Assembly (NCBI GenBank): GCA_016180435.1
Contig: JACPBG010000001.1
Location: 216,006-280,005, forward strand
DNA from: Candidatus Sungiibacteriota bacterium
GTDB lineage: Bacteria; Patescibacteriota; Minisyncoccia; Sungbacterales; HO2-52-23
Length of the DNA stretch: 64,000 nucleotides
Reading direction: 5' to 3'
Numbering within the stretch: the stretch's first letter is position 1; each line of letters opens with the position of its first letter. The notes beneath the pieces were generated by a model that saw only the letters and a list, made by a program, of their open reading frames with translations, did not search any database and was not told the origin of the DNA. A program made the position numbers and the translations under genes. Below, one piece after another: positions 2,279 through 39,760 of the stretch.

Positions 2279-3649
2279 ATGCCTCAAATCTCCACCCAAA
2301 ATCCTATTGAGCTTCGCATGCCGCCCCAAAACGTAGAGGCGGAAATGTCGGCTTTGGGATCGCTTATGCTTGACCGCGACGCAATTTTTAAAGTCGCGGA
2401 TTTTTTAAAGCCGCATGATTTTTATAAATCCGCACACCGCGAAATTTACGAGGCGATGCTCGACATTTTCAATCACCGCGAGCCGATTGACGTTTTATCG
2501 GTTACGGCGCGGCTTCGTGAAAAAGGAAAATTGGAGGAAGTTGGGGGATCCGCCTATATCACGAGTTTAGTGAATGTGGTTCCCACCGCCACCCACGTGG
2601 CGCATTACGCTTCAATTGTAAGAAAGAAGCGCCTACTCCGCGATTTAATTGAGGCATCCAGCCATATTGCACAGCTCGGGTACAAGGAGGCGGAGGATGT
2701 TGAACAATTGATCGATGAGGCGGAACAGAAAATATTCGGCATATCGCGCGACTCTCTGCGCCAGGAATTTTTTCTGATAAAAGATGCACTGGAAGAGGCC
2801 TGGGAACGCATTGAAAAAATCCATAACAGCCGCGACGCCCTGCGCGGAGTTACCACGGGCTTTAAAGAACTTGATTCAATCCTGGGGGGCTTGCAAAAAT
2901 CGGACTTGGTCGTGCTGGCTTCGCGCCCGAGTTTAGGAAAAACATCGCTGGCTCTGGATATTTCACGCAATGCCGCGCGAGCCAAACACGCGGTCGGCGT
3001 ATTTAGCTTAGAAATGTCCAAAGAACAGCTGGTGGACCGCTTAATCGCCAGCGAGGCCGCAGTAGACCTTTGGCGCCTGCGCACCGGACATTTAAATCAG
3101 CACGGCGATGGAAATGATTTCTCACGATTGCAAAGCGCTTTATCCACTCTATCGGAACTTCCCCTGTATCTGGACGATACGCCATCCCCCACCGTAATGG
3201 AGCTTCGCGCCAAAGCCAGGCGGCTGCAATCCGAAAAAAAACTTGAACTGGTGGTAATTGATTACCTTCAGCTAATTAAAGGTTATGGAAGCCCGGAGTC
3301 GCGAGTGCAGGAGGTATCGGAAATTTCTCGCTCCCTCAAGGCCATGGCCAAAGAGTTAAATGTGCCGGTGCTTGCTCTTTCCCAGTTATCGCGCGGAGTT
3401 GAAATGAGGCCCTCGGCCATTCCCAAACTTTCGGATTTACGCGAAAGTGGAAGCATTGAGCAGGATGCGGACGTGGTCATGTTTATTTACCGCGAAGATA
3501 AAGTCAAAGAAAACAGCGAACGTAAAAACATCGCCGAAATCCGCGTGGAAAAACACAGGAATGGCCCCACCGGCAAAATTGAACTGTATTTCCACGAAGA
3601 AACCGCCTCATTCCGCTCTCTTGAAAAACATATGGAGGAACTTATATAA
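2279..3649 (+). CDS. dnaB: Replicative DNA helicase DnaB
   Basis: 456 aa; DnaB N-terminal domain (NVEAEMSALGSLMLD), Walker A GxxxxGKT (SRPSLGKTS), C-terminal RecA-like motifs (DYLQLI, ESGSIEQDADVV). Confidence 0.93.
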   Translation: MPQISTQNPIELRMPPQNVEAEMSALGSLMLDRDAIFKVADFLKPHDFYKSAHREIYEAMLDIFNHREPIDVLSVTARLREKGKLEEVGGSAYITSLVNVVPTATHVAHYASIVRKKRLLRDLIEASSHIAQLGYKEAEDVEQLIDEAEQKIFGISRDSLRQEFFLIKDALEEAWERIEKIHNSRDALRGVTTGFKELDSILGGLQKSDLVVLASRPSLGKTSLALDISRNAARAKHAVGVFSLEMSKEQLVDRLIASEAAVDLWRLRTGHLNQHGDGNDFSRLQSALSTLSELPLYLDDTPSPTVMELRAKARRLQSEKKLELVVIDYLQLIKGYGSPESRVQEVSEISRSLKAMAKELNVPVLALSQLSRGVEMRPSAIPKLSDLRESGSIEQDADVVMFIYREDKVKENSERKNIAEIRVEKHRNGPTGKIELYFHEETASFRSLEKHMEELI

Positions 3650-3650
3650 A

Positions 3651-3797
3651 ATTATTCTAATTGTTCTAATTAACCTAATTGTTCTAATCAATGACCATAA
3701 AAAATGTCTAATGACCAAAACTATTTTAGATATTTAGACATTCGCAAAATTGGGATTTAATTAGGTAAATTAGAATAATTAGGTTAATTAGAATAAT
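3651..3797. repeat. AT-rich palindromic intergenic element E1 built from TTCTAAT / ATTAGAA heptamer arrays
   Basis: Left half attattctaattgttctaattaacctaattgttctaat; right half aattaggtaaattagaataattaggttaattagaataatt is its inverted counterpart; near-identical copy at 5158-5299. Confidence 0.8.
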
Positions 3798-3806
3798 TTT
3801 TATTTC

Positions 3807-4482: not shown

Positions 4483-5157
4483 CTATCCGTACACCGGGGA
4501 CTCGCGGTAAATACAGTACTCGCAATTTTGATGGGCTTTGGGAATCGGGCCGGTAACGATTTCGCGGACTCTTTTTAAAACCGAGATGCCACGCGATGGA
4601 GAAACATCCATTTTGATAAGTTCGGTCTTAAAATCCGCCGCACCCATGCCGTATGACGTTGGCCAGAAAAATAATAAATATCCGTATTCTGCCGGAGGCA
4701 TTTTATTTTCGCGGAAAAGCAAAGCATATAAATCAAGCTGGGTGCGGTAATGTTCATGCGTATCCTCTTTGGTCGGATAACCGCGGGTTTTGAAATCAAA
4801 CGGCACAAACTTTCCGTCAGGCGCAATTAACAAATCGTCAATCGCGCCGCGAAGCACAATATCAAGGTCCGGAAATTTTGCCCCAAGACCCCCGCGGCCA
4901 AAATCTACTTCACGCCATTTATTAAATTCGGCCAAATTTTCATTATAAAGCCGGCCATCCGCTTTTCCATCAATCTCCGGAGGCAATTCGCCGCGTTTCC
5001 GATATTCGTCAAAATATTTTTTGAAAACATTATCCATTCCGTCCGGAAGCGACGGATAGGCGCCGCGCGGGCGCTTTTTATTTTCATTCATCTGCAGCCA
5101 AAGACAGCGCGGACATTCCAATAAATAACTTGTACCGGATGGAGAAACTTTAATCAC
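4483..5157 (-). CDS. Cas4/RecB-family PD-(D/E)xK nuclease with putative Fe-S cysteines (stand-alone)
   Basis: Motifs IDDLLIAPDGKFVPFDFK (D..D/ExK), QLDLYALL (QxxxY), Cys pairs CPRC (N-term) and CEYC (C-term). Start uncertain: track start at 5199 is TTG inside repeat E2; GTG at 5157 or ATG at 5091 are alternatives. Confidence 0.55.
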   Translation of the reverse strand: MIKVSPSGTSYLLECPRCLWLQMNENKKRPRGAYPSLPDGMDNVFKKYFDEYRKRGELPPEIDGKADGRLYNENLAEFNKWREVDFGRGGLGAKFPDLDIVLRGAIDDLLIAPDGKFVPFDFKTRGYPTKEDTHEHYRTQLDLYALLFRENKMPPAEYGYLLFFWPTSYGMGAADFKTELIKMDVSPSRGISVLKRVREIVTGPIPKAHQNCEYCIYRESPVYG

Positions 5158-5299
5158 AATTATTCTAATTACTCTAATTGCTCTAATTATTCTAATCAAA
5201 TCCTAATGACAAAATGTCTAAAAACTTTAGGAAATAGGCATTCAAATCATTGAGGTTTTTTAGGTTAATTAGGTCAATTAGAATAATTAGGTTAATTTA
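5158..5299. repeat. AT-rich palindromic intergenic element E2 (second copy of E1 family)
   Basis: aattattctaattactctaattgctctaattattctaatc ... aatgtctaa ... ttaggttaattaggtcaattagaataattaggttaatt; collinear with E1 at 3651-3797. Confidence 0.8.
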
Positions 5300-5747
5300 A
5301 TAGGCCCTTTATTTCCTTCAAAATACTATCCGGCACCGGATCACGCTCGGGCGCATGCCCGGGATAGCGCCAAGCGGTTATCACTTTAATTCGTTTAGGT
5401 TTGGGAATTGGAAATTGAGAATTGGAAATTCCTCGCACGGCCGTTACCATATACATAACCCATATTTCGGAATATTTCTTTCCTTCTGCCGGAGACATAG
5501 CAGCAATAGCGCGAGGCAATATCCCCTCCTCCGCCCGCGCCGGATGACGAATCACCCGTTTAATCCGCGATTCAGTCAAACGATAATGCCGCATTTTCAT
5601 ACGCGAGTGCTGAGTCCAAATATATTTATCACTCCATCCTCCTGAATGTCCCACGGTCTTGATACGAGAATGAAGAATTTTCTTCAATCTTTCTCGCGGG
5701 GTCCAATATTCCGCGCGAAGACGGGGGAATTTATCCACAGATATCAT
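5292..5747 (-). CDS. Hypothetical protein, DUF4258-like motif (possible toxin-like small protein)
   Basis: WTQHSRMKMRHYRLTESRIKRVIRHP resembles the DUF4258 T-x-H-A-x-E-R-M-x-E-R-x-I signature; contains in-frame simple repeat at 5401-5436. Confidence 0.35.
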   Translation of the reverse strand: MISVDKFPRLRAEYWTPRERLKKILHSRIKTVGHSGGWSDKYIWTQHSRMKMRHYRLTESRIKRVIRHPARAEEGILPRAIAAMSPAEGKKYSEIWVMYMVTAVRGISNSQFPIPKPKRIKVITAWRYPGHAPERDPVPDSILKEIKGLLN

Positions 5748-9146: not shown

Positions 9147-10316
9147 ATGGCTCGTTCAAAATCAAATACAGTGATCGTGGAAGCCAAACGCACTCCCATA
9201 GGCAAACGCAATGGCGTTTTCAAAAACCTCAAAGCGCATGAGCTTGGCGGCGCGCTTATAAAATCAGTGTTGAATGCCTGGGGACACCGGGTTGATGAAG
9301 TGATTATGGGAAATATGATCGGAGTAAGCTTTGATGCCGCACAAGGATTGAGACCGCGCCTGAATCCGGCAATGGAGGCATGCATCAAAGCCGGATATGG
9401 ATTTATTCATGGATGGACATGCGGAGATGCCTGCAGTTCGGCGTTAAAATCGGTCATAGTCGGAGACAGAAGTATTCGCTCGGGAGATTGTTCAAGTGTC
9501 CTGGCCGGAGGCATGGAATCCATGAGCGGACTTCCGAAAGAGTGGCTGGCTATGGTGCTAAAGGATCCTAACGATTTATCTCCTCTGCATCCTACCGATT
9601 ATTTCTCACATGGATTCACTACACTGGAAGCCGGAGAATGGTGCGCCAAGTATTGCGGAGTAAGCCGCCAAGATCTAGATAATTGGGCCATAAAAAGTTA
9701 CTTGCGAGCGCGCAAGGCCCAGACCGATGGAGTTTTTAATACGCAGATTGTGCCAATTAACGAAGTTGCTTTGGATGAAGAACCAACTCTGCCGATTACC
9801 GAAGACATGATACTCAAAGCCGCACCCAAATTGGGACCGGACGGAACCATAACGTATTATACCGCATCCAAAAATGCGGACGGGGCGTCGGTCGTGTGGC
9901 TAATGGATCCAACATTCGCAAAAAAACGCGGATTCCAACCGCTTGCCGAAATTGTAAGCCAAGCCCCAAGCCAAACCATACATCGCGATACAAGACACTT
10001 CACGGTTGAGCCTCTGCAGGCCATACACGCGGCCCTGCAAAAAGCCGATCTTTCACTGTCAGATGTAGATATTTTTGAAATAAATGCGCCATTCGCACCG
10101 GTAATAGTCCATGCAATCCGCCAACTCGGCATATCGGAGGAGTTGGTAAATATATATGGCGATTCAATCGCTTTCGGGCATCCGGTTGGAGCATCCGGCG
10201 CGATTTTGCTGGTACGCGCCATATACGCGCTTCTTGCCACCGGAGGACGTTATGCCGTAATTTGCCTGTGCCATGCGCTGGGCGGCGCAACTGCAATGGT
10301 TATCCGGCGAATGTAA
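9147..10316 (+). CDS. Thiolase-family protein (acetyl-CoA C-acyltransferase-like)
   Basis: 389 aa; N-terminal thiolase fold, C-terminal GHPVGASGAILLVRAIYAL and CLCHALGGATAMVI matching thiolase GHPxGASG and CxGGGxG regions. Confidence 0.7.
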   Translation: MARSKSNTVIVEAKRTPIGKRNGVFKNLKAHELGGALIKSVLNAWGHRVDEVIMGNMIGVSFDAAQGLRPRLNPAMEACIKAGYGFIHGWTCGDACSSALKSVIVGDRSIRSGDCSSVLAGGMESMSGLPKEWLAMVLKDPNDLSPLHPTDYFSHGFTTLEAGEWCAKYCGVSRQDLDNWAIKSYLRARKAQTDGVFNTQIVPINEVALDEEPTLPITEDMILKAAPKLGPDGTITYYTASKNADGASVVWLMDPTFAKKRGFQPLAEIVSQAPSQTIHRDTRHFTVEPLQAIHAALQKADLSLSDVDIFEINAPFAPVIVHAIRQLGISEELVNIYGDSIAFGHPVGASGAILLVRAIYALLATGGRYAVICLCHALGGATAMVIRRM

Positions 10317-10740: not shown

Positions 10741-10829
10741 GTTTGCTTCGCAAAAGATCTTAGAACTTAGCGTCTAGAACTTAGTAATTTTCTAAGTTCT
10801 AAGTTCTAAATTCTAAGTTCTCGTATTAA
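10741..10829. repeat. Heptamer array element E3: 2x AGAACTTAG then 4x CTAAGTTCT (inverted)
   Basis: tcttagaacttagcgtctagaacttagtaattttctaagttctaagttctaaattctaagttctcg upstream of minus-strand gene 10426-10740. Confidence 0.75.
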
Positions 10830-11701: not shown

Positions 11702-12748
11702 TCAAAGAGAAATTACTTCCTCCCACGGCAGGTCCGGCTTGCCAAAATGACCATAAGATGCGGTGCTTAAATAAATTGGCCGGCGCAAATTAAGACGCTC
11801 AATTATGGCTTGCGGCCGAAAATCGAATTTTTCGGAAACTAGTTTTCCTAAATCCTTACCGTCGCTGGTTTCGGCATGCACCATCAAGGGCTCGGCGCGG
11901 CCAATAGCATATGCAACCGAGACCATACAATCCTTGGCAAGTCCGTTTGCCACGATATTTTTAGCCGCATATCGCGCCATATAGGCGGCCGAGCGATCCA
12001 CTTTGGTAGGGTCCTTGCCGGAAAACGCGCCGCCGCCATGCGGAATAAGCCCGCCATACGTATCCACCATGATTTTTCTGCCGGTAAGTCCGGTGTCTGC
12101 CGTAAATCCGCCGATTACAAATTTTCCGGTAGGATTGACCAAGACCTCGATTCCCGATAAATCACCAGTAACCGGATGGATCAATTTGCGCAGCAGTATT
12201 TCTTTAATTTCCGGCTGGGAGATGCTGTCCGAGTGCTGACATGATATCAATACAGCGCTCAATTTCCCATCATGCATCGTTACCTGCGATTTGCCGTCAG
12301 GGCCAAGCCATGAACATTCAGAATCGTTTCTGCGCAAATCCTCAAGGCCTTTGGTAAATTTATGCGCCAGCGAAACAGCCCGCGGAAGAAATTCCGGGGT
12401 TTCGGCAGTAGCGTATCCATACATAATACCCTGATCCCCGGCGCCTCCGGTGTCCACTCCCTGCGCGATATCCGGGGACTGACGGATGATATTCGTAACA
12501 ACTTTCAAATTATCCGCATATCCGATGTCGCGGTATATTTTTTGCGCAATTTCTCCGGCCTCAATCTCCCCCCGGGAAGTTACTTCTCCTCCCACGACCA
12601 AAAGTCCGTGGGAGCCAAAACTCTCCACAGCCACGCGGGAATGCGTATCTTTTTTAAGATATTCGTCCAAAATCGCGTCCGAGATTTGGTCGCATATTTT
12701 ATCCGGATGTCCGGAGGTTACGCTTTCTACGGTGTATGTGGTACGCAT
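11702..12748 (-). CDS. metK: S-adenosylmethionine synthetase (methionine adenosyltransferase)
   Basis: 348 aa; N-terminal ESVTSGHPDKICDQISDAILD, GGGAFSGKDPTKVDRSAAYMARYAAKN signature. Confidence 0.9.
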   Translation of the reverse strand: MRTTYTVESVTSGHPDKICDQISDAILDEYLKKDTHSRVAVESFGSHGLLVVGGEVTSRGEIEAGEIAQKIYRDIGYADNLKVVTNIIRQSPDIAQGVDTGGAGDQGIMYGYATAETPEFLPRAVSLAHKFTKGLEDLRRNDSECSWLGPDGKSQVTMHDGKLSAVLISCQHSDSISQPEIKEILLRKLIHPVTGDLSGIEVLVNPTGKFVIGGFTADTGLTGRKIMVDTYGGLIPHGGGAFSGKDPTKVDRSAAYMARYAAKNIVANGLAKDCMVSVAYAIGRAEPLMVHAETSDGKDLGKLVSEKFDFRPQAIIERLNLRRPIYLSTASYGHFGKPDLPWEEVISL

Positions 12749-12759
12749 AAATGTAAATT

Positions 12760-12915
12760 AAAACTCACAAAGCACAGAAACCAAGACATAAACAAGCACT
12801 AAAATTCAAAATTCACCTAATTTCTAAGGCCTGAATTTTTAATTTCTTTATTTGGTATTTTATTAGAAATTAGACAATTAGGTAATTAGAAATTTATCTT
12901 AATGGGTTTTGTGCA
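12760..12915. repeat. Repeated ~150-bp leader/element E4 upstream of metK (homologous to 39476-39760 minus its inserted small element)
   Basis: acagaaacca..actaaaattcaaaattcacctaatttctaaggcctga..taatttctttatttggtattttattagaaattagacaattaggtaattagaaatt..gggttttgtgc shared almost verbatim with the region upstream of neuB. Confidence 0.75.
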
Positions 12916-12966: not shown

Positions 12967-13150
12967 GAAAAAAGCTATCGCTCCCCTTACAGGGCTGGCA
13001 TTGGCACTATTCCGCTTTTAACGGAACTTTGCTGGCGGGTCATAGGGCCAGATCCCTCACCGCACTCTGGATAAAACATAAATTTTGATTATCTATATAA
13101 TACATGCAACTATACAAAAAACAAGAAAGTTTTCCACAAACATCCGACCA
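12966..13150 (-). ncRNA. Candidate small non-coding transcript (unclassified)
   Basis: ~180-nt GC-richer stretch between two minus-strand terminators, preceded by AT-rich promoter-like sequence at ~13085-13130, ending in the terminator at 12936-12966; contains several helices (gggccagatccc, ccgcttttaacgg); no match to SRP/6S/RNase P/tmRNA motifs that I could recognise. Confidence 0.2.
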
Positions 13151-16706: not shown

Positions 16707-19481
16707 CTAGATTTTGCCGTGGCAATGCTTATACTTCTTTGGGCGGCCGTCAGAATGGGCCGCTCCGCACGGGCAGGGGTCATTGCGACTTGGTTCTTTT
16801 TGGCCTTTTAATTTAATAGAAGCTCCCATTTTTCCCGAAGAAGATTCTTCGCCCGGTTTAAATTGACTTACCGCAATATCCGGCCGGCGCTCCTCAACCC
16901 GGCGGGGATTTTCTCCGGCCATAGATATGGCGCCGACTTTAAAAATGGTGTGAACTATTTCACTGCGAATCGCGGCCTGCAGCTGCCGAAAAAGCCGCAC
17001 GCCCTCATTTTTATATTCCACTAATGGATCGCGCTGTCCGTAGGCGCGCAGGCGTACCGAATCGCGCAAATGCTCCATTTGATCAAGCTGATCCATCCAT
17101 AAAACATCAATGGTGCGAAGCATCACGGCGCGCTCGGAAGAGCGCATCTGCTCATCTCCCACGGCCTTTTCATGCTCTTCATATTTTGACTCCAAAACAT
17201 CAAATATAAAAGTGCCTATCTTATTGCGCTTCTCATCGCCGTATAATTCCTCGCCCGCAATTTCACGGAGTTTATGATGCATATCATCGGAAATCGACGC
17301 AATACTTTTTACTCCCTCGAATATTTCTTCAAGATTCCAATCGTCAATCCGATCGGCTGATGCATGAAATTCCACTAATTTTGAAACTTCTTCCTTAATC
17401 ATATCAAAAATCCTTTCGCGTAAGGTAACTTTCTCGACTTCGCTCGAAGAATAATTATCTAAGTTACCATTTGGGATTTGGGATTTGGGATTTGGGATTT
17501 CCGAAAAGAGAATATCTTTTCGGAGGCGGTATATTGAGTCCCTCTGCCTATTCAGCACATCATCAAACTCCAGCACGTGCTTTCGCGCATCAAAATGAAA
17601 CCCCTCGATTTTTTCCTGCGCGGCTTCAATAGCGCGCGATACCATGCGGTTTTCAATTGGCTGATCTTCAGGGATACCGAGAGTTTCCATCATGCGCCTC
17701 ACCCTCTCTGCCCCGAATATCCGCATCAAATCGTCTTCCATAGATACGAAAAACTGCGACTCGCCCGAATCGCCTTGCCGTCCGGCGCGTCCGCGCAACT
17801 GATTATCGATCCGGCGCGCCTCATGCCGCTCGGTGCCGATCACGCATAACCCCCCCAACCCGCGGACAATATCAGCTTCTTTCTGATCCTGCGGATTTCC
17901 TCCAAGAATTATGTCAACGCCTCGTCCGGCCATGTTGGTTGCAATTGTAACAGCACCAGCTCTGCCGGCTTGCGCGATGATCAATGCCTCGCGCTCGTGA
18001 TTTTTGGCGTTTAATACCTCATGCGGCACGCCTTCAACCTCAAGCATTTTGACCAGGCGTTCATTTTTTTCGATGGACACGGTGCCAACAAGCACCGGCT
18101 GACCTCTGCCATATCTTTCTTTTACTTCGCGTACAACTGCCTGCATTTTCCCCCGCTCGGTGCGAAATACCAAATCAGGCAAATCGCGGCGCACCATGGG
18201 GCGATGCGTGGGAACGGATATCACGTCAAGGTTATAGACCTTATGAAATTCCTCGGCCGAGGTTTGCGCGGTTCCGGTCATGCCCCCGAGTTTTTTATAC
18301 ATGCGGAAATAATTTTGAAACGTAATAGTGGCAAGGGTCCGCGATTCCTGTTCAACCCGCACGCCTTCTTTGGCCTCCACCGCCTGATGCAATCCCTCCG
18401 ACCAACGGCGCCCGGGCATAAGGCGCCCGGTAAACTCATCCACAATTGTCACTTTGCCGTCCTTTACCACATAATCGCGATCACGCGTAAATAAGGCTTG
18501 CGCCCGCAAGGCCTGTTCCAGATGATGCACAAAACGAATTCCTTTTTCCTCATAAATATTTCCGATGCCAAGCATTTGCTCAACTTTATCAATACCCGCC
18601 TCGGTGATGGATACGGCGCGCAGTTTTTCATCCACATTGTAATCAATATTTTCTTTCAGGCGCGGTACGATTTTTGAAAATACGCGGTAAAGTTCGGCGG
18701 ACTCTGCATCCGGCGCGGAAATTATCAAAGGAGTTCGCGCCTCATCAATTAAAATGGAATCCACCTCGTCAACTATGGCGTAATGATGGTGTTTTTGCCG
18801 AAGCGATTCGGGCGCATATTCTAAATTATCGCGCAAATAATCAAAGCCGAATTCGTTGTTGGTGCCGTAAGTTATGTCCGCGGCATAGGCTTCATGCCGC
18901 GCACAAGGCCGGAAATGCGAAAGGCGCGGATCATCATGACGCTGGATGTCTTGAAATTCCGGATCATAAATTCCGGAAAATTCATGGGCGATAACTCCGG
19001 TTGATACGCCCAGCGCGTGATACACCGGCCCCATCCAGCCCGCGCCAACCCGCGACAAATAATCATTCGGAGTAACCAAATGCGCGCCCCTGCCTTCAAG
19101 CGAATTCAAATAAAGCGGCAGGGTGGCCACCAGGGTTTTTCCCTCGCCGGTTTTCATCTCGGCAATTTTTCCCTCATGAAGCACAATTCCACCGGCTAAC
19201 TGCACATCAAAATGCCGCTGATTAAGTTTTCTCTTGGCAGCTTCCCGAACCGCGGCAAACGCCTCAGGAAGAATTTCTAACAGGGATCCGATCCCTGTTA
19301 CAGGGATCGGATCCCTGTTTATTCCTAGACGCCGCTTAAATTCAACCGTAAGATTTCTAAGTTCTTCATCTGAGAATTTTTCAAAATCTTTCTCCAATTC
19401 ATTGATCTCATCAACAATCGGCTGGAGAGATTTTATATAGCGTTCATTGGCATCCCCAAAAATTTTTCCCAAGATTGACAT
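16707..19481 (-). CDS. secA: Protein translocase subunit SecA
   Basis: 924 aa; DEAD-like motor (MKTGEGKTLVATLP, DEVDSILIDEARTPLIIS), C-terminal zinc-binding CPCG...HCHG; carries two unusual in-frame insertions (17470-17499; palindrome near 19270-19320). Confidence 0.95.
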   Translation of the reverse strand: MSILGKIFGDANERYIKSLQPIVDEINELEKDFEKFSDEELRNLTVEFKRRLGINRDPIPVTGIGSLLEILPEAFAAVREAAKRKLNQRHFDVQLAGGIVLHEGKIAEMKTGEGKTLVATLPLYLNSLEGRGAHLVTPNDYLSRVGAGWMGPVYHALGVSTGVIAHEFSGIYDPEFQDIQRHDDPRLSHFRPCARHEAYAADITYGTNNEFGFDYLRDNLEYAPESLRQKHHHYAIVDEVDSILIDEARTPLIISAPDAESAELYRVFSKIVPRLKENIDYNVDEKLRAVSITEAGIDKVEQMLGIGNIYEEKGIRFVHHLEQALRAQALFTRDRDYVVKDGKVTIVDEFTGRLMPGRRWSEGLHQAVEAKEGVRVEQESRTLATITFQNYFRMYKKLGGMTGTAQTSAEEFHKVYNLDVISVPTHRPMVRRDLPDLVFRTERGKMQAVVREVKERYGRGQPVLVGTVSIEKNERLVKMLEVEGVPHEVLNAKNHEREALIIAQAGRAGAVTIATNMAGRGVDIILGGNPQDQKEADIVRGLGGLCVIGTERHEARRIDNQLRGRAGRQGDSGESQFFVSMEDDLMRIFGAERVRRMMETLGIPEDQPIENRMVSRAIEAAQEKIEGFHFDARKHVLEFDDVLNRQRDSIYRLRKDILFSEIPNPKSQIPNGNLDNYSSSEVEKVTLRERIFDMIKEEVSKLVEFHASADRIDDWNLEEIFEGVKSIASISDDMHHKLREIAGEELYGDEKRNKIGTFIFDVLESKYEEHEKAVGDEQMRSSERAVMLRTIDVLWMDQLDQMEHLRDSVRLRAYGQRDPLVEYKNEGVRLFRQLQAAIRSEIVHTIFKVGAISMAGENPRRVEERRPDIAVSQFKPGEESSSGKMGASIKLKGQKEPSRNDPCPCGAAHSDGRPKKYKHCHGKI
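17470..17499. repeat. In-frame simple-sequence repeat (TTGGGAT/GGGATTT)x4 inside secA
   Basis: ttgggatttgggatttgggatttgggattt encodes IPNPKSQIPNG in SecA. Confidence 0.85.
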
Positions 19482-21014: not shown

Positions 21015-21041
21015 GATACATCAAGAATTGAGTTTTTTGAT

Positions 21042-21081
21042 TTGTATCTAATTTTACGCTTAAGCGTAAAATTAGATACAA
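21042..21081. repeat. 40-bp perfect palindrome TTGTATCTAATTTTACGCTTAAGCGTAAAATTAGATACAA
   Basis: 19-bp perfect arms around a central TTAA (contains CTTAAG); lies between convergent genes but lacks a T-tract. Confidence 0.85.
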
Positions 21082-21093
21082 AATGAATTTACG

Positions 21094-23335: not shown

Positions 23336-24307
23336 TCAGAATCCGACATATTGAATTTCCTCCTCCAATATCACCCCAAATTTACGCATACAAGTGTCTT
23401 TTATTATAGAGATCAGGGTTAAGATATCCTCGGCTTTGGCATTGCCCGGATTTATTATAAAATTCGCGTGCTTCGGCGAAACCACGGCATTCCCGACACG
23501 CCAGCCTTTAAGCCCGGCCATTTCAATAAAAAATCCGGCAGAAATAAAACCCCGGCGGTTCTCAAAAACCCAGCTTGAATTTTCATGTTTTCTATGCCAC
23601 CACGGAATACGGTTACCCAATTTTTCCAAAATTTCTTCGGACAATGGGACTCCTTTGAATATGCTTCCGGCGGACGACTCGCCGATCGGCTGCTCGCCAA
23701 TGCGCTCCGCGCTTTTTTGCCTGATTACCTCTAAAAGCTCCGCGGTGCGCGCCGGATCTTCCTGTTTTAATTTTAAAACAGCGGAAAGTATAATCCACTC
23801 CGGATGTTTTTTAAAAATTGATTCTCTGTAACCAAATTGACACTCGCGAGCGTTTAGCGTAAAGCGTTTAGCGTTTAGAAAATCCAGCACTTCAACAGAT
23901 TCAATCACGTCTTTCATCTCGCCACCGAAACATCCGGCATTTCCGCGCACTGCCCCGCCCGCCGTTCCCGGCACCCCCGTCCCCCATTCAAGTCCCGAGA
24001 GTCCGGCTTTGGCGGTTTCTATAGCCAGACGCGGCATCATGATACCGGCATCAACAGTAACCTCCGGACCATTAATTCTAAGCTCTCCGCCGATAATATG
24101 AATGGCCAGGCCGTCAAATCCTTTGTCGCTCACCAAAATGTTGGATCCGGCGCCTAAAATAAAAATGGCCGCTTGATTTTTTGCGGCAAAATCAAGCGCC
24201 TCTTTCATTTCCTGTTCATTCCTTGCCTCGGCAAAAAATCGGGCAGGCCCCCCGATTTTATATACGGTATACGGCGCAAGAATAATATTATGCCGCAAGG
24301 CGATCAT
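23336..24307 (-). CDS. murB: UDP-N-acetylenolpyruvoylglucosamine reductase MurB
   Basis: FAD-binding N-terminal domain (YKIGGPARFF, ILGAGSNILVSD), C-terminal MurB domain; probable ATG at 24307 (track extends to 24376); in-frame GCGTTTAGCGT-type repeat at 23843-23868. Confidence 0.85.
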   Translation of the reverse strand: MIALRHNIILAPYTVYKIGGPARFFAEARNEQEMKEALDFAAKNQAAIFILGAGSNILVSDKGFDGLAIHIIGGELRINGPEVTVDAGIMMPRLAIETAKAGLSGLEWGTGVPGTAGGAVRGNAGCFGGEMKDVIESVEVLDFLNAKRFTLNARECQFGYRESIFKKHPEWIILSAVLKLKQEDPARTAELLEVIRQKSAERIGEQPIGESSAGSIFKGVPLSEEILEKLGNRIPWWHRKHENSSWVFENRRGFISAGFFIEMAGLKGWRVGNAVVSPKHANFIINPGNAKAEDILTLISIIKDTCMRKFGVILEEEIQYVGF

Positions 24308-24890: not shown

Positions 24891-26020
24891 CTACGGAATA
24901 ATAATATCTTTGAGCTGCTTCGGATATTTGGTTAAATTCCAACAGCCGGTTTTAGTGACTTGCACCAAATCCTCAGTACGAACGCCGAGTTTATTTCCAG
25001 GATCATACAATCCTGGTTCTACCGACGTCACCAGGCCATTTTTTAGGATATAGGATCCTTCATTAATCCGCGCCGGCGGCTCGTGGCATAAAAGTCCAAG
25101 CCCATGGCCGGTGCCGTGGATAAACCCTCGACCCTTAACAAGATCAGTTTTAAAACCCGCTTTCGCAAACAATTCCTCAATCGCAACATGAATATCTTTC
25201 CCATCCACTCCGGCGCGAATCATCCCAATGCCTTTTTCTTGACCGGCAAGTACTGCCTCATACATCTTTACAAAAAGCGTAGGCGGATCGCCTTTACAAA
25301 ACGTCCGCGTCATATCAGAAAAATAACCGGTTTTTCGCGAATAAGGATAGATATCGAATATGATTGAAGTATTAGCACGAAGCGGTCCTACACCCACATG
25401 ATGCGGAATCGCAGATTGGGCGCCAGAAGAAACAATTGTGTCATAAGATGCGCAGCCGCGACGGAAAAGCTCAAGCTCAATGAATGAACGCAATCCTTCG
25501 GATGTAAGCGTCTTACCTTTCTCCATGATGAAACCATTTTTTATCGAGGCGCGGCGAAGGCGCTTTTGCACCAAATCCAGCACATCCTCCATATGATTTT
25601 GTACTTCAGTAATATGGCTGATTTCTTTTTCGGTCTTTACAATACGATTTTCATACCACGGCAACTGGCCAATTCGTATCTTTATCCCGGATTTACGCAA
25701 ACGATCCACAACTTCAATCGGAGTAAACGGGTGAACTTCTAAAGCGGTTAGGCCGCGTTTTTCAAGCAAATATTTTACCCGACTTTCTTGAAATAGGACT
25801 CCGCGTTAAGAACTTGGCAATTTTTGGCCTCAAGCTTCGCACGCGTAAATTCCAAAGATCCGACAAGCAAGAACCTATCCCATCGTCCGTTTTCGCGCGC
25901 AAACTCTAGAAAAAAATGCGGATCCGGAAGCGGCATCCGAACCAGCCAAAAAAGATCCATATTAATGGTTTCGGCCATATAGGTTGCGCCGTATATGAGA
26001 CGTGCTCGTTTTATAGACAT
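24891..26020 (-). pseudogene. Xaa-Pro aminopeptidase (M24B) interrupted by a +/-1 frameshift near 25769-25777
   Basis: Creatinase-like N-terminal domain in ORF 25775-26020 and the rest plus M24 catalytic domain (HGTGHGLGL) in ORF 24891-25769 lie in different frames 5 nt apart; could be a genuine frameshift or a sequencing error. Confidence 0.6.
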
Positions 26021-26953: not shown

Positions 26954-28132
26954 TTGTATCATACAATGGACAGGAGAAAAATTTTATACGTCATTACCAA
27001 GTCAAACTGGGGAGGGGCGCAAAGATACGTTTATGATCTTGCCACAAATTTGCCGCAGAATCGTTTTGAAATTGCCGCGGCAACCGGAGGAAATGGTCTT
27101 TTGATTCAAAAATTGCGCAAAGCCGGCATACGCATTATAGACATCCGATCCTTTCAACGCGACATAAGTATCCTGAAAGAATTTATGGCATTCTGGCATT
27201 TATTTAAGGTATTTTTGCGCGAAAAACCGGATGTCATACATTTAAACAGTTCCAAAGCAGGCGGGATCGGGGCAGTAGCCGCGTTTCTCTACAAACTAAT
27301 AACTAATAACTGGTTACTGATAACTATCTTTACTGCTCATGGCTGGGGATTTAACGAGCCCCGGGCGCATTGGCAAAAATTCCTGATTAGAATTGCAAGT
27401 CGAACCGCCGCCCTATTTCAGGATAAAATCGTTGTGATAAATAACGCCGATTATGATGCCGTACGCTCATTTATTCCGCCGCACAAACTCTCGCTTATAC
27501 ATAACGGCATACGGCGTCCGGAATTTCTGCCAAGACGCGAAGCGCGCAAATTTTTAGAAGAAAAAATCGGACGTCCGCTTCCCTCCGATACACTAACCAT
27601 AGGAACTATTGCAGAACTCACCAAAAATAAAGGACTCATTTATTTGATTGACGCGGTCAATCAAATAAAAACAAAAAACAAAAGACAAAAGACAAAAGTG
27701 ATTATTATCGGAGAAGGTGAGGATAGAAAGATGCTTGAAGAAAAAATAAAAATATGCAATTTGCAAGATACGATTTTTATTACGGGATTCATTCCGGATG
27801 CCGAAAAATATCTAACGGCATTTGATATTTTTGTGCTCCCGTCGCTAAAAGAGGGCCTCCCCTATACTTTGCTTGAAGCCATGGCCGCCGGACTTCCCGC
27901 TATTGCAACCCGCGTAGGAGGAATTCCGGATATAATCCAAAACAACGAAAACGGCCTTATGGTTCCTCCGTCTGATCCGCAAGCCCTTTCCACCGCGCTT
28001 AAAACGCTCATCGAAAATACTGTAATCCGCGCGCGGCTCGGAAAACAAGCCAACCGAACCGTCAAGACAAAATTCACGCTCAATGCTATGATAGAAAAAA
28101 CAATTTCACTCTATAGCACACATGGCTACTAA
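26954..28132 (+). CDS. Glycosyltransferase family 4 (GT-B, Glycos_transf_1)
   Basis: 392 aa; C-terminal EGLPYTLLEAMAAGLPAIATRVGGIPDII...NGLMV motif. Confidence 0.85.
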   Translation: MYHTMDRRKILYVITKSNWGGAQRYVYDLATNLPQNRFEIAAATGGNGLLIQKLRKAGIRIIDIRSFQRDISILKEFMAFWHLFKVFLREKPDVIHLNSSKAGGIGAVAAFLYKLITNNWLLITIFTAHGWGFNEPRAHWQKFLIRIASRTAALFQDKIVVINNADYDAVRSFIPPHKLSLIHNGIRRPEFLPRREARKFLEEKIGRPLPSDTLTIGTIAELTKNKGLIYLIDAVNQIKTKNKRQKTKVIIIGEGEDRKMLEEKIKICNLQDTIFITGFIPDAEKYLTAFDIFVLPSLKEGLPYTLLEAMAAGLPAIATRVGGIPDIIQNNENGLMVPPSDPQALSTALKTLIENTVIRARLGKQANRTVKTKFTLNAMIEKTISLYSTHGY

Positions 28133-29513
28133 CCGCATCAAAATCACGCTTCTTATTTTAGGGGACTTTCTAACACTCTGGGGAACCCTAATTTTGATTT
28201 TGTTTCTCCGCTATCACGCCGATCAAGATTTCGATCTACAAAAAATGTTTCAAATCCATGTAGCGCCTTTTACTCTCGTATTTGCCGCCTGGCTCGTACT
28301 TTTCGGCGCTTTTGGATTATACGACATACGGACGCTCGGCCTCGTTACCATACGGGATGCGCGGAGGCTTTTATTAAGAATGACGGAAGCAATGGCGTTT
28401 AATACGGCCTCGGCCATTATCATTTTTTATTTGATTCCGGCATTTGAAATCGAACCGCGCCGCAATTTATTCTTGGTGGTTTTGGGATCATTATTCTTCA
28501 TCTTTACATGGCGCTGCCTTATTAATCTTTTCATAACCAAAGCCAAGCCCTTACCGATCGCATTTTTTGGCATTAACAAAGAAGTGGTGGAGCTTGCGGA
28601 TTGGCTCCTGAAAAATCCGCAGCTCGGAAGAAAGCCGGCCGCATTCATATCCGCAAACAGCGAGGACACCCTGCGTCCCCTGCCCCTTCCCGTGTTCACC
28701 CACACCCAAGACATGCAGCATCTAGCGCGCGATTTGGCGCTGGATGCCATAATCATTACCCGCGAGATCAAAGAGAATAAAACACTGACGCGCGCTCTTT
28801 TTCAAATGATACCGCTGGGCGTAGGCATTACGGAATTTACGGCATTCCACGAAATGCTCACCGGAAAAATCCCTTTATCACTCATAGGGGAAGTGTGGTT
28901 TTTGGAAAATCTGGCTGGCAGCCAAAAAGACATATATGAATTTTTCAAACGCGTGCTTGATATCGGACTTGCCATACTTCTGGGCATTCCATTTTTAGTC
29001 CTTTTACCTTTAACTGCAATTTTTATCAAAATCAATTCGCCGGGTAGAATATTCTTCCGGCAAAAACGGGTGGGTAAAAATGGAAAGGAGTTTTTTCTGA
29101 TAAAATTCCGTTCTATGGTGCAGACTGCCGAAAAACTTGGCGGATTTAAAAATGAATCCGAAGACCGCCGCCATACCGGCGTAGGAAAATTTTTAAGAAA
29201 AATATATATTGACGAATTGCCACAAATAATAAATGTTTTGCGCGGTGAAATGTCATTTATCGGACCGCGGCCGGAGCGGCCCGAATATGTCCGCGAACTA
29301 AAAGAAAAAATTCCGTTTTACGAAATGCGACTTTTAGTTCCGCCCGGCATCACCGGCTGGGCGCAAATTAATATGGAGAATGACGCATCCGTGGAGGATG
29401 CGCCGGAAAAAATGCAGTATGATCTTTATTACATCAAAAATCGTTCATTCCTGCTGGATATTCTAGTGGCGCTCCGCACAATTTTTATCATTCTCCGCCG
29501 CCCTGGAAGATAG
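28122..29513 (+). CDS. Polyprenyl-phosphate sugar phosphotransferase (WbaP/PssY-like initiating transferase)
   Basis: 463 aa; N-terminal TM helices, C-terminal Bac_transf domain (KFRSM, DELPQIINVLRGEMSFIGPRPERP, PGITGWAQIN). Confidence 0.85.
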   Translation: MATNRIKITLLILGDFLTLWGTLILILFLRYHADQDFDLQKMFQIHVAPFTLVFAAWLVLFGAFGLYDIRTLGLVTIRDARRLLLRMTEAMAFNTASAIIIFYLIPAFEIEPRRNLFLVVLGSLFFIFTWRCLINLFITKAKPLPIAFFGINKEVVELADWLLKNPQLGRKPAAFISANSEDTLRPLPLPVFTHTQDMQHLARDLALDAIIITREIKENKTLTRALFQMIPLGVGITEFTAFHEMLTGKIPLSLIGEVWFLENLAGSQKDIYEFFKRVLDIGLAILLGIPFLVLLPLTAIFIKINSPGRIFFRQKRVGKNGKEFFLIKFRSMVQTAEKLGGFKNESEDRRHTGVGKFLRKIYIDELPQIINVLRGEMSFIGPRPERPEYVRELKEKIPFYEMRLLVPPGITGWAQINMENDASVEDAPEKMQYDLYYIKNRSFLLDILVALRTIFIILRRPGR

Positions 29514-30106: not shown

Positions 30107-30502
30107 TTACAATGGTCTACAAAAAACGGCAAAATTTGCCCTTCCTGCGGCAGAAAAAATGCAAAAAAGAACGGATATTCACGCGGCAAGCAGCAATATA
30201 AATGCTTAAAGTGCAATAAGAAGTTTTCCGGTCAAAGACGACGCGGTATTTTACAAAGTATTCTTTGGCAGCAATACGCCCATGATTATTGCACAGTAGA
30301 TCAACTGACCCGCAAGTATCACCGAAGCGAAAAGTGGATCCGATCTCAACTGGATGCATACCGATTCCCGGAACATAAGATGGCGCCGCGTCCGGTCGTG
30401 ATCGTGGCTGACGCCATGTTCTTTGGAAGACACTGGGGAGTGGTAGTAATGCGCGCTCCGCACAATTTTCATCATTCTCCGCCGCCCTGGAAGATAGGAT
30501 AA
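30107..30502 (+). pseudogene. Zinc-ribbon transposase remnant (IS1/IS1595-type N-terminus; truncated, no ATG start)
   Basis: Frame encodes KNGKICPSCGRKNAKKNGYSRGKQQYKCLKCNKKFS (CxxC-N17-CxxC ribbon) then ...PRPVVIVADAMFFGRHWGVVV resembling the start of a DDE domain; ORF ends inside the duplicated 45-bp segment. Confidence 0.45.
30453..30497. repeat. 45-bp direct duplicate (44/45 identical) of the 3' end of the sugar-transferase gene (copy 1 at 29469-29513)
   Basis: gcgctccgcacaattttcatcattctccgccgccctggaagatag vs gcgctccgcacaatttttatcattctccgccgccctggaagatag; encodes ALRTIFIILRRPGR* in both places. Confidence 0.9.
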
Positions 30503-30548
30503 AAACAGGTTATTATCACAAATTGTCATACGGAATATCTGTATTTTT

Positions 30549-30586
30549 TACTCTGATATGTATACGATCGAAATAATATCAGAGTA
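30549..30586. promoter_or_regulatory. 38-bp palindromic site TACTCTGATAT-N16-ATATCAGAGTA (copy A, downstream of PaaX-like gene)
   Basis: tactctgatatgtatacgatcgaaataatatcagagta; second copy at 31284-31321. Confidence 0.6.
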
Positions 30587-30638
30587 AATCTGAATATCCG
30601 CCGCAGAACCATACAGAAAAATAAGATAGATAATACAT

Positions 30639-31232: not shown

Positions 31233-31283
31233 TTAAATATATTCAGTGGCCAAAAACCGCGTTCCAGCCCGCAAAAATTTATA

Positions 31284-31321
31284 TACTCTGATATTTATAC
31301 GATCGTATTTATATCAGAGTA
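31284..31321. promoter_or_regulatory. 38-bp near-perfect palindrome (copy B) ~50 bp upstream of PaaX-like gene; putative operator
   Basis: tactctgatatttatacgatcgtatttatatcagagta (34/38 self-complementary). Confidence 0.6.
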
Positions 31322-31382
31322 AAAAATATTATTACTGGTCTGGTACTACTTGGGGGGAAGATAAAAAAACAATTATTAATAC

Positions 31383-32294
31383 TCAAAAAATATGCAACAG
31401 AGTTTTCAACTCATTTATTCCGTCAACAAAAGATATTTTTGGTTCCCAGCCGAGAAGTTCTTTGGCTTTCTTGATATCGGCCAAAGTTTCTAATACTTCG
31501 CCCTGGCGCGATTCGATAAATTTCCACGGCCCGCCGATCATCTCGGCGATTTCAAGAACACTGTAGTTCGTTGCCGTACCGATATTTACTATTTCTCCTT
31601 TGCCTACTTGACCGGATTTCATGGCAAGCAAATTGGCGCGCGCCACATCCGTAACGTGCGTAAAATCCCTACGCTGGGTCCCATCCGGCACCACACTCAT
31701 TGGCGTACTATTCGCACGTTGCTCTAAAAAAATTCCAATTACAGTTGCATATGGTCCGTCGGAAGCAGTGGTTTGCCGAGGCCCATAAACATTAAAATAA
31801 CGCAAAGAAACTGTTTCTAGGCCATAAAAACGCGCGGCCATTTCGCAATATTGCTCCCCCACTCTTTTCTGAATCGCGTAAGGAATAATGGGCTCCGGAC
31901 GCATGTCCTCCGTAAGAGGCATCACATCTTTTCTGCCGTACGCGGAGGAAGACGCGGAATACACCACTCTTTTGACTCCCGCATCGCGCGCCGCCAAAAG
32001 AACATTCAACGTTCCAGTAATATTGATATCATTGGTAAGCCGCGGCTCTTTCAGGGAATATTGCATTCGGGGTTGCGCCGCAGTATGGAAAATTCCCGCT
32101 GCACCCTTGAAAACCGGCGCAAGTTTGTCAAAATCGCGGATATCCATCTCATGAAGGATGGCCTTAGGATTTAGCCGCTCGCGCTTGCCGGTCAAAAAAT
32201 TATCAATAACATGCACTTCGTCGCCGCGCGCAATCAGCATATCCACAATATGGGAGCCGATAAAACCAGCCCCGCCGGTTACAATAAATTTCAT
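31383..32294 (-). CDS. NAD-dependent nucleotide-sugar epimerase/dehydratase (extended SDR)
   Basis: 303 aa; TGGAGFIGSH Rossmann motif, YxxxK (YAIQK). Confidence 0.85.
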   Translation of the reverse strand: MKFIVTGGAGFIGSHIVDMLIARGDEVHVIDNFLTGKRERLNPKAILHEMDIRDFDKLAPVFKGAAGIFHTAAQPRMQYSLKEPRLTNDINITGTLNVLLAARDAGVKRVVYSASSSAYGRKDVMPLTEDMRPEPIIPYAIQKRVGEQYCEMAARFYGLETVSLRYFNVYGPRQTTASDGPYATVIGIFLEQRANSTPMSVVPDGTQRRDFTHVTDVARANLLAMKSGQVGKGEIVNIGTATNYSVLEIAEMIGGPWKFIESRQGEVLETLADIKKAKELLGWEPKISFVDGINELKTLLHIF

Positions 32295-32326
32295 TAGGAA
32301 TTAGGAATTAGGAATTAGGAATTAGT
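32294..32326. repeat. Tandem heptamer array (AATTAGG)x4.5 abutting the epimerase start codon
   Basis: attaggaattaggaattaggaattaggaattag; on the coding strand (CTAATTC)n runs directly into ATG with no Shine-Dalgarno. Confidence 0.85.
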
Positions 32327-39475: not shown

Positions 39476-39760
39476 CTAAAACTCACAAAACACAGAAACC
39501 AGAACTAAAATTCAAAATTCACCTAATCTCTAATTTACCCCGTTAGAAATAAACAAATATAGTAGCATCTGCAACTCGTTTTTATCGGTAAAAATAGATA
39601 ATTTCCGCACTAAAAACATCTTCTGTTTCTTTCTAACGGGGTGAACCTAATAAAATTTCTAAGGCCTAAGTTCTTAATTTCTTTATTGGACATTTTATTA
39701 GAAATTAGACAATTAGGTAATTAGAAATTGAGGCCGCTATTTGGGTTTTGTGCGTTTATT
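39476..39760. repeat. Copy E5 of the ~150-bp leader element (see 12760-12915) upstream of neuB, interrupted by a small TIR element
   Basis: acagaaaccagaactaaaattcaaaattcacctaat...[insert 39537-39642]...tttctaaggcctaagttcttaatttctttattggacattttattagaaattagacaattaggtaattagaaatt...gggttttgtgcg. Confidence 0.75.
39537..39642. mobile_element. Small TIR-bounded element copy c: ACCCCGTTAGAAA ... TTTCTAACGGGGT
   Basis: 13-bp perfect terminal inverted repeats; inserted within the repeated leader element relative to the uninterrupted copy upstream of metK. Confidence 0.7.

Follow-up and report, generated by a model that had tools for sequence, protein, structure and literature searches.

The 64-kb stretch of DNA analysed here (the window, 44.5% G+C) comes from Candidatus Sungbacteria, an uncultivated groundwater bacterium of the Candidate Phyla Radiation (CPR), and it carries on its minus strand (16707..19481) a secA gene for a protein of 924 amino acids (aa) with all four SecA Pfam domains. 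This protein is identical to the SecA of P0001, which is encoded on a 365-kb contig of an NCBI Candidatus Sungbacteria metagenome-assembled genome (MAG). Within the gene, at 17469..17500, lies a perfect heptanucleotide array, (AAATCCC)x4.6 on the coding strand or (ATTTGGG)x4.6 on the plus strand, detected by Tandem Repeats Finder (TRF) with 100% matches and also by a TRF-independent scan. Read in frame it gives EIPNPKSQIPN, at residue 661 of 924. The original prediction, made from the letters alone, had described this repeat as (GGGATTT)x4, and it is confirmed here as perfect and in frame; it had been grouped with two other in-frame repeats, in murB and in a gene called DUF4258-like, all three being taken for insertions produced by slipped strands or repeat seeding and suspected of hypervariability. 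We think it probable that the secA array is a heptanucleotide simple-sequence repeat (SSR) that evolves in frame by slippage or template switching and is filtered by reading frame and protein structure.

The array occupies a linker of SecA (residues ~659-686; 17424..17507, minus strand) that lies between the long scaffold helix and the first helix of the wing domain and varies among lineages. Compared with the SecA of B. subtilis (1tf2), the window protein has 24 more residues at this place, between ...RKDILFSE and LRERIF..., and among the 117 orthologues whose linkers were compared the surplus ranges from 0 to ~45 residues; no repeat is present at the linker of P0003, whose SecA is 82% identical, and the window linker is longer than the one found there by an in-frame step of 14 aa (42 nucleotides, nt). 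In an AlphaFold2 model built with 62 sequences (predicted template modelling score, pTM, 0.71), residues 659-686 form a coil between helices 630-658 and 687-706, and the predicted local distance difference test score (pLDDT) falls below 50 at residues 664-681. The claim that the secA repeat is a loop insertion is therefore upheld, since the linker is length-variable among orthologues and is modelled as a disordered coil.

The same linker has received heptamers elsewhere. An unrelated bacterium (L004, 51% identical in SecA) has a perfect (AAAGTCA)x4.3 array directly after RKDIL, period-7 sequence occurs in the linker of L181 and L182, and L001 and L047 carry heptamer arrays in two other surface loops of SecA. 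L001, L004 and L047 come from a scan of genome contigs with SecA, whose conserved peptide patterns proved too general, so that it returned mostly distant phyla and was kept as a background control and as the source of these three loci. In L181 (~4990-5110, the SecA linker of P0006) the array, of ATTCAAA type, is broken by a GC-rich segment of ~30 nt (CGCCCCGCGGAATGCCGGCAAGCGAGGATAGG) encoding SPRGMPASEDR.

A sister species, represented by L081/L084, L082, L083 and L085 (99.4-99.8% identical to one another), is 81% identical to the window in SecA and 85% in MurB. Its secA shares with the window a second kind of repeat: at 19280-19319 (codons ~55-67) the window gene has two in-frame copies of a 20-nt palindromic unit (ACAGGGATCCGATCCCTGTT), encoding INRDPIPVTGIGS, and the corresponding sister-species repeat is found in L081 at 10163-10201. 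In the mRNA the window repeat forms a perfect hairpin of 19 base pairs (-40.9 kcal/mol, z = -7.1); the INRDPIPVTGIGS loop is modelled with pLDDT <50 and is not present in B. subtilis SecA, and it is this loop that the heptamer array of L047 occupies. Programmed -1 frameshifting on C-CCA-AAU of the secA array was considered as a formal possibility from the sequence only, and was dropped since the sister-species unit is not slippery.

The second site is in murB (23336-24307, minus strand), where the units CTAAACG, CTAAACG, CTTTACG and CTAAACG at 23843..23878 encode LNAKRFTLNARE at MurB residue 144; the third unit carries its mutation at the place where an unmutated copy would put a TAA in frame. 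This repeat, previously said to end at 23868, does exist, but it ends at 23878, and the string then quoted begins at 23850. Its description as an insertion is refuted: the array replaces 12 codons with no net change of length, leaves a gap of at most one residue against solved MurB proteins, and belongs, in the MurB model (pLDDT ~87-90), to an ordered beta-hairpin (strands 135-142 and 147-152, joined by a turn), of which it supplies the turn and the second strand.

In nearly all relatives the hairpin segment measures 39 nt between conserved anchors, and in L092 it measures 60 nt (39 + 21), an in-frame step of three units. Among the 81 CPR loci compared at this site, ~15 Sungbacteria-like genomes (roughly at least 47% MurB identity) have clear period-7 sequence, while more distant CPR have ordinary sequence. 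The units are diverse, CTACAAG (L093, perfect x4.4), GCGAAAA (L124, perfect x4.3), TTCAAAA, TGCAAAA, CTACCAC, GTGACGA, CCGAAAT and GAATTAG-like ones being found, and the motifs that recur in the hairpin are three-frame translations of such heptamers: ATSYKLQATS is (CTACAAG)n, QNSKFKIQNS is (CAAAATT)n, and LNAKRFTLNA is (CTAAACG)n with the in-frame TAA mutated away. All array types nevertheless keep [YF]-x-[LI]-[QN] in the second strand, which indicates a filter at the protein level. On a neighbour-joining tree of MurB, computed with the hairpin masked, the types are scattered (at least 8 changes for a type of 9 sequences, at least 7 for one of 8 and at least 8 for one of 13), and the type of the window is shared by a 75%-identical orthologue and not by an 85%-identical one.

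Two side observations concern murB in the sister species. In L085 a 46-nt deletion (~2961), away from repeats, divides the gene, the two products being P0376 and P0377; it is a further sign that arrays are not the only places where these metagenome assemblies have frameshifts. In the intergenic region upstream of murB, L081 (5078-5819) and L082 (1607-2165), although near-identical strains, differ by two indel blocks of ~35 and ~135 nt, and a neighbouring small open reading frame (ORF) is divergent; the region resembles a small segment that is mobile or hypervariable.

The third site lies in ORF 5292-5747 (minus strand), where TTGGGAATTGGAAATTGAGAATTGGAAATT, an imperfect array at 5401..5430 with a period of 7 (or 14) and 78-93% matches, encodes GISNSQFPIPKPK; its units on the coding strand, AATTTCC, AATTCTC, AATTTCC and AATTCCC, encode ISNSQFPIPKPK. 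The repeat exists in frame as announced, with its end at 5430 and not at 5436. The product (151 aa) is a conserved CPR protein with 337 homologues, and the name DUF4258 is weakly supported, in that PF14076 is matched weakly by 30 of 40 family members (best E 1.7e-4), whereas no Pfam model matches the window copy, even at E <= 5; the family profile matched no solved structure. The array sits in a hairpin loop that comprises 8-12 aa in short homologues and that in many others holds inserts of ~50 aa resembling translated palindromic elements of the REP (repetitive extragenic palindromic) or MITE (miniature inverted-repeat transposable element) kind. Here too the repeat is a loop insertion, as had been proposed, and the loop is a hotspot of insertion among homologues.

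Inserts of this kind are not peculiar to that family. Many CPR orthologues, among the DUF4258-like proteins (P0122-P0189) and including SecA proteins P0027 and P0041 and MurB proteins P0268 and P0261, have in-frame inserts of ~15-50 aa in the same permissive loops, and these resemble translated REP/MITE elements (for instance ...RHDSS..PSKSRFSLSRKRIA..., SSSRATEGSAAISEIASSRQVGTRND and LRQAQDIYPERSRG), so that the loops that accept heptamers take other small repeats too.

The coding arrays are thus confined to permissive sites, namely the disordered SecA linker, the insertion-hotspot loop of the DUF4258-like protein and the MurB beta-hairpin, which is hypervariable in sequence. The grouping of the three sites in the original prediction holds, all of them belonging to one class of period-7 tandem arrays, and their peptides are similar because they are three-frame translations of similar A/T/C-rich heptamers (AAATCCC; AATTTCC, AATTCTC, AATTCCC).

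How far this class exceeds chance was assessed with 100 block-wise dinucleotide shuffles of the window, in which TRF arrays of at least 3 copies were counted. TRF finds nine period-7 arrays in the 64 kb (4.3-4.7 copies, 30-33 nt), against 0.14 expected and a shuffle maximum of 2, as well as four period-9 arrays against 0.06 expected; strict self-match scans give four arrays at period 7 and 0-1 at each other period from 3 to 14, and periods 5, 6 and 8 are not enriched. Five of the nine are coding (secA, murB, two in a gene for a GT4 glycosyltransferase and one in the gene of the 151-aa protein) and four intergenic (10790, 12862, 32293 and 39697). Among CPR loci 30 of 51 arrays are coding, yet intergenic DNA is ~4-fold enriched per base, a division of coding from intergenic arrays that rests on a crude ORF-based proxy for genes. 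Many window units have an ATTAG/CTAAT or AATT core; the 51 arrays represent 47 canonical units, on which ground a single master heptamer, of the kind known for TAACTGA, was rejected. Period 7 is also the commonest period in the control set of 79 unrelated secA loci.

The copy number is peculiar as well. In 2.14 Mb of mixed bacterial sequence, the copy numbers of perfect period-7 runs have two modes, with 41 below 3 copies, 6 at 3-3.5, 1 at 3.5-4, 8 at 4.1-4.7 and 3 longer, whereas periods 5, 6, 8 and 9 in the same sequence show a plain decay without a second mode; the discrete class of ~4.1-4.7 copies corresponds to 29-33 nt and occurs across phyla. In genes, 4.x copies equal 1.x plus three units, the smallest in-frame gain. 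Two simple accounts of the mode at 32-33 nt were tried and rejected: a TRF threshold artefact, by the TRF-free count of perfect runs, and a pure effect of reading frame, by the intergenic window arrays, all four of which also have 4.4-4.7 copies.

Comparison with the sister species tells how the arrays change. The (AAATCCC)x4.6 of the window secA corresponds there to (AAATCCG)x4.7, every unit differing at the same position, which is the signature of concerted evolution. In murB the flanks are 86-90% identical and the 36-nt array 50%, (CTAAACG)n being replaced by (CTACAAR)n at equal length. The GT4 gene (26954-28132, plus strand) has two arrays, one of CTAATAA / CTGATAA type at 27294..27326 and one of CAAAAAA / CAAAAGA at 27663..27698, and both have counterparts at orthologous offsets with different units, (CTACAAR)x4.6 and CAACAAA / CTACAAA respectively, so that CTACAAR-type units are found at all three sister-species sites (murB and both in GT4). 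These comparisons show that arrays persist at orthologous sites while the unit turns over.

Changes of length, where they occur, are by whole units. Among the sister secA alleles, four perfect units are seen in L083 and L085, one of the units in L084 is a variant, and L082 has one unit fewer; over 6,989 nt at 99.4% identity, the sole indel between L082 and L081 is the loss of one 7-nt CGAAATT unit in the secA array, and as a result secA there consists of two ORFs, of 700 and 223 aa. A perfect (ATTAGGA)x4.7 array (32293..32325, minus strand) abuts the start codon of an epimerase gene (31383-32294), and its orthologue in L083 is degenerate and one 7-nt unit shorter; over 330 nt around this array in the 5' untranslated region (UTR), both indels between the window and L083 are exactly 7 nt and fall in heptamer repeats. 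By its head-to-tail repetition of at least three copies, its excess over chance, its specificity for period 7 and its unit-length indels between relatives, the secA array is a heptameric SSR.

Within populations there is far less to see. The 13 sister-species SecA sequences, from independent assemblies (JGI, ENA, NCBI), fall into two point alleles, PKF and PKS, about evenly split, and the unit count is the same in 12 of them, which means that length change is rare. For the strain of the window itself, the arrays at 5401, 10790, 23849, 27294 and 27663 were reproduced at 100% identity in Logan k=31 assemblies from several runs, and so was the larger part of those at 12862 and 32293. The secA array was not spanned by any same-strain contig that was fetched, those reached through its upstream neighbour ending 1.3 kb short, and an exact-product look-up with the window SecA and one downstream gene gave no second same-strain copy. 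We considered whether Logan contig tips at arrays might be variant alleles and rejected this, the tips being Nextera adapter sequence (AGATGTGTATAAGAGACAG) or breaks at palindromes. The proposal of hypervariability is hence weak at this level, with SecA near-uniform in unit count, MurB monomorphic and same-strain contigs equal to the window; the comparison of copy number across strains yielded one exact unit loss (L082) and otherwise a nearly fixed length.

The same Logan contigs revealed a discrepancy elsewhere in the window. At 25777, 22 nt (GAACGCAAGTGGTCGCCTGTTA) present in five same-strain contigs are missing from the window, with no repeat at the site, and the gap splits an M24 peptidase gene (383 aa in the Logan contigs) into ORFs of 292 and 81 aa (24891-25769, 25775-26020); the probable cause is an error of MAG assembly or else a rare allele that carries the deletion.

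We propose the following scenario. Arrays would arise and be homogenised by slipped-strand mispairing, or by template switching within the array, while DNA is replicated or repaired, and now and then array sequence would be copied from one locus to another. Since 7 is not a multiple of 3, the change of a single unit is a frameshift; in essential genes such changes would be purged, and the survivors would have the same length or differ by three units more or fewer (21 nt, 7 aa). Peptides such as IPNPK, IRNPK, KIQNSK and YKLQATS would be by-products of a heptamer read in three frames, filtered for the lack of stop codons and for local structure, as with [YF]-x-[LI]-[QN] in strand 2 of MurB. The secA and murB arrays would then be tolerated mutational hotspots and not switches. 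The slipped-strand mechanism of the original prediction finds support in the 7-nt loss of L082, in the two 7-nt indels of the 5' UTR and in the concerted changes of units.

Several observations weigh against this scenario, and we prefer to state them together. The unit count is uniform in 12 of 13 SecA sequences, all nine sister-species MurB sequences are identical, and the unit-loss allele of L082 is possibly an artefact of assembly with small k, frameshifting indels off repeats being present in the same assemblies (46 nt in murB of L085, 22 nt in the window M24 peptidase). The discrete class of 4.1-4.7 copies, which includes intergenic arrays, is not predicted by simple slippage, and neither are the patchy phylogenetic distribution of murB types and a module of 66 nt that one genome has in secA and another in murB. 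Finally, stepwise slippage passes through frameshifted intermediates, so that homogenisation at constant length requires conversion-like or double events, none of which was observed.

The module just mentioned is a composite of (CCGAAAT)n, a junction and (TTCAAAA)n. It occurs in the secA linker of L081/L083 and, at 83-88% identity, in the murB hairpin of the distant L146 (alignment score 73 against a shuffle maximum of 28), and it lends some support to the idea of repeat seeding. It is one argument for an alternative to which we give a low, but not negligible, probability, namely that array modules are copied between loci, either as a tiny mobile or conversion-driven element or by templated rewriting of ~30 nt with ~4.5 heptamer copies. 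Such copying would agree with the sharing of one unit, CTACAAR, by murB and both GT4 sites of the sister species, with the duplication of a 76-nt array module before two unrelated genes of the window, with the scattering of murB types (shared with the 75%-identical orthologue and not the 85%-identical one), with the discrete class of perfect period-7 runs of 29-33 nt across phyla and with the replacement of sequence at unchanged length by the murB array. However, 47 canonical units among 51 arrays leave no master sequence, and the window yielded no candidate for an enzyme or a template; convergent units could result from the need for stop-free, hydrophilic translations in three frames and from the [YF]x[LI] constraint, and A-rich low complexity inflates similarity, the 66-nt composite being the only strong non-orthologous match found. 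A bolder version, in which a dedicated or semi-dedicated process of copying and overwriting writes ~30 nt (four units and a partial one) and so re-seeds the MurB hairpin and the SecA linker across CPR lineages, we regard as improbable; it could work by transposition of a micro-element, by ectopic conversion between arrays or by templated synthesis.

It is still less likely that the secA array is a functional nucleic-acid element whose four units are selected, be it a G-quadruplex on the template strand (G3N4G3N4G3N4G3), a heptad operator or an RNA-binding site. By sequence match a canonical quadruplex motif (GGGATTTGGGATTTGGGATTTGGG) does start at 17473 on the plus strand, where it is the only such motif of the window; the preference for four units parallels that described by Rehm et al. 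2015 (PMC4692102), and the intergenic arrays of the window, which adjoin start codons or form strong hairpins, may be regulatory. On the other hand, the orthologous array of the sister species, CGGATTT, is without a G3 tract, the linker arrays of L004, L181 and L182 are not G-rich, most arrays of ~4.5 copies have no G tracts, and repeats of the published G-rich class occur in coding DNA less often than expected (PMC4692102). A quadruplex role for (GGGATTT)x4 is not supported, because orthologous arrays do without G tracts.

We would say the same of contingency loci, that is of reversible frameshifts that would switch secA, murB and other genes off and on, or make split proteins, as a form of bet-hedging. 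The unit length is indeed not divisible by 3, four near-identical strains show three array alleles between them, and the loss of one unit in L082 splits secA (700 + 223 aa) exactly at the surface linker. But secA and murB are essential housekeeping genes, the array is located at residue 661 of 924, far from the N-terminus, and there is no ribosome-binding site ahead of the downstream ORF of L082; 12 of the 13 population SecA sequences are in frame at one length, murB is monomorphic, same-strain contigs are equal to the window, and similar frameshifts occur away from repeats in these assemblies. Adaptive phase variation (the original prediction had spoken of sites that could be phase- or length-variable) is therefore unlikely, and hardly plausible for essential single genes: the genes are essential, the position is internal and the length is nearly fixed within populations.

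That the repeats are artefacts of assembly or sequencing is very improbable indeed, for although the data are metagenome-assembled, with frameshifting indels in the window and its relatives, and although no second assembly covers the window secA array, seven window arrays are wholly or largely reproduced at 100% identity in Logan k=31 assemblies, 13 sister-species sequences (JGI, ENA, NCBI) contain the orthologous secA array, and the arrays keep to the reading frame and hold their positions from species to species.

We return to the intergenic arrays, some of which may have functions of their own: a hairpin (10750-10821), the array that meets an AUG (32293) and the one before metK (12862). The first is an inverted pair of heptamer arrays, CTTAGAA-type followed by TTCTAAG x4.6 (10750..10821, minus strand), between two minus-strand genes, and it folds as a long hairpin (-31.3 kcal/mol, z = -7.2); in the second, (CUAAUUC)n runs into the AUG of the epimerase mRNA and is unstructured. 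The third, ATTAGAA-type x4.4 at 12862-12894, belongs to the duplicated 76-nt intergenic module (12819..12894, minus strand), which lies between an S-adenosylmethionine (SAM) riboswitch (12972-13077, minus strand, 53 bits) and the start codon of metK (11702-12748, 348 aa). The second copy of the module (39654..39729, minus strand) is 92% identical and lies upstream of another gene of 348 aa (38406-39452); that the two genes might be paralogues, which would explain a shared upstream module, was rejected, their proteins being unrelated. In an extended form the module comprises 12759-12894 on one side and 39477-39533 with 39654-39729 on the other (~76-135 nt, 89-92% identical). No known RNA family was found under the window arrays: the SAM riboswitch adjoins one array only, and no riboswitch match lies beside the second copy of the module.

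The window also has several palindromes. Two elements of ~150 nt (3648..3800, fold z = -8.2, and 5152..5297, fold z = -8.4) have period-9 AATTAG/CTAATT arrays as arms, at 3650-3688 and 3757-3798 in the first, which belongs to the same repeat-core family as the ATTAG heptamers, and at 5158-5196 and 5260-5297 in the second, which abuts the stop codon of the DUF4258-like gene. Both have 44-nt arms and a similar core of 60-65 nt, and they bracket recR (3807-4433) and a PD-(D/E)XK nuclease gene (4483-5199); Logan k=31 contigs consistently end within the second, at 5261-5285. A perfect 42-nt palindrome (TTTGTATCTAATTTTACGCTTAAGCGTAAAATTAGATACAAA) at 21040-21083, after a gene of 340 aa, interrupts eight of eight Logan contigs at 21069-21070, and it is likely a bidirectional terminator as well as a breakpoint of the de Bruijn graph. 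A PaaX-like gene (30639-31232) is surrounded by two copies of a 48-nt palindromic element (30542-30589 and 31279-31328, 87-88% identical), and a direct repeat of 45 nt (29469-29513 and 30453-30497, 98% identical) includes the 3' end of a Bac_transf gene.

Heptameric repeats of bacteria have long been noted but barely studied, and their preference for period 7 has no accepted explanation. Here the same codons of essential genes, in the MurB hairpin and the SecA linker, carry arrays in many genomes at constant length and with differing units, so that metagenomes allow the rates of slippage, homogenisation and selection to be measured. The arrays also explain some of the insertions specific to CPR proteins, mark loops that tolerate insertion, and are places where MAGs are likely to show frameshifts, whether real or artefactual, such as the split secA. 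The preference for four units in arrays that are not G-rich calls into question the quadruplex explanation given for Xanthomonas and Nostoc. A process of copying and overwriting, if true, would be a new route to local diversity of proteins, through localised hypervariable peptide cassettes.

Contingency loci based on SSRs are typically dispensable genes for the surface or for host interaction, polymorphic within populations, with the repeat in the promoter or near the N-terminus. The arrays described here resemble them in that a change of 7 nt shifts the frame, one lost unit being enough to split secA in L082, and differ from them in that secA and murB are core housekeeping genes with an internal array and little polymorphism of length. 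An example is given in PMC8262952, where 7-bp repeats are said to control hmw1A in Haemophilus influenzae.

The repeats studied by MacGregor (2015, PMC4679880) in Beggiatoaceae, cyanobacteria and Bacteroidetes consist of 2-6 copies of TAACTGA, mostly just before start codons without a Shine-Dalgarno sequence; the few in ORFs are at peripheral positions, among others in MurG and a glycosyl hydrolase (PMC4679880). The array at 32293-32325, directly before a start codon without a Shine-Dalgarno sequence, is like them, and the secA array is not. In that system one heptamer is used genome-wide, whereas the units of the window are diverse and none is TAACTGA or a rotation of it; and in place of peripheral positions we find internal ones, SecA residue 661 and MurB residue 144.

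Heterocystous cyanobacteria are reported by Mazel et al. 1990 and Elhai et al. 2008 to have short tandemly repeated repetitive (STRR) heptanucleotide sequences, with small dispersed repeats embedded in heptamer arrays. The likeness lies in dispersed tandem heptamers with several units per genome, and the ~30-nt GC-rich insert of L181 is reminiscent of the embedded repeats. Those arrays, unlike the present ones, are cyanobacterial, intergenic and often longer; we deal with a different phylum, in which the evidence for mobility is one shared module. Calothrix is mentioned in PMC4692102.

Of the same type as the secA unit are the GGGNATC and GGGGAYT heptamers of Xanthomonas and Nostoc, which form G-quadruplexes, prefer ~four units and occur less often than expected in coding regions (Rehm et al. 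2015, PMC4692102). The GGGATTT type of unit, the number of ~four, the inverted pairs and the differences in length and sequence between arrays located between the same genes in relatives are common to both. Nevertheless, the sister-species array has no G tracts, the preference for four extends to units that are not G-rich, and whereas the published class is intergenic, within ~50 bp of the start or stop of an ORF, our array lies ~2 kb inside secA.

More generally, heptameric SSRs are over-represented in many bacteria, where polymerase slippage has been proposed, with length and sequence varying between close relatives and with inverted pairs (PMC4692102); the long heptameric SSRs of Mrazek et al. 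2007 are, as cited in PMC4692102, mainly intergenic. No relevant paper came out of a literature search that combined CPR or Patescibacteria with tandem or simple-sequence repeats. The window agrees with the SSRs of Mrazek et al., as they are cited there, in its excess of 7-nt units over other unit lengths, and departs from that account in that five of nine arrays (window) and 30 of 51 (CPR loci) are in genes, essential ones included, even though intergenic DNA is ~4-fold enriched per base, and in that an array can be retained at an orthologous coding site through a change of its unit. What is new here is the CPR setting, the high share of arrays inside genes, essential genes among them, and the persistence of arrays at orthologous sites through the turnover of their units.

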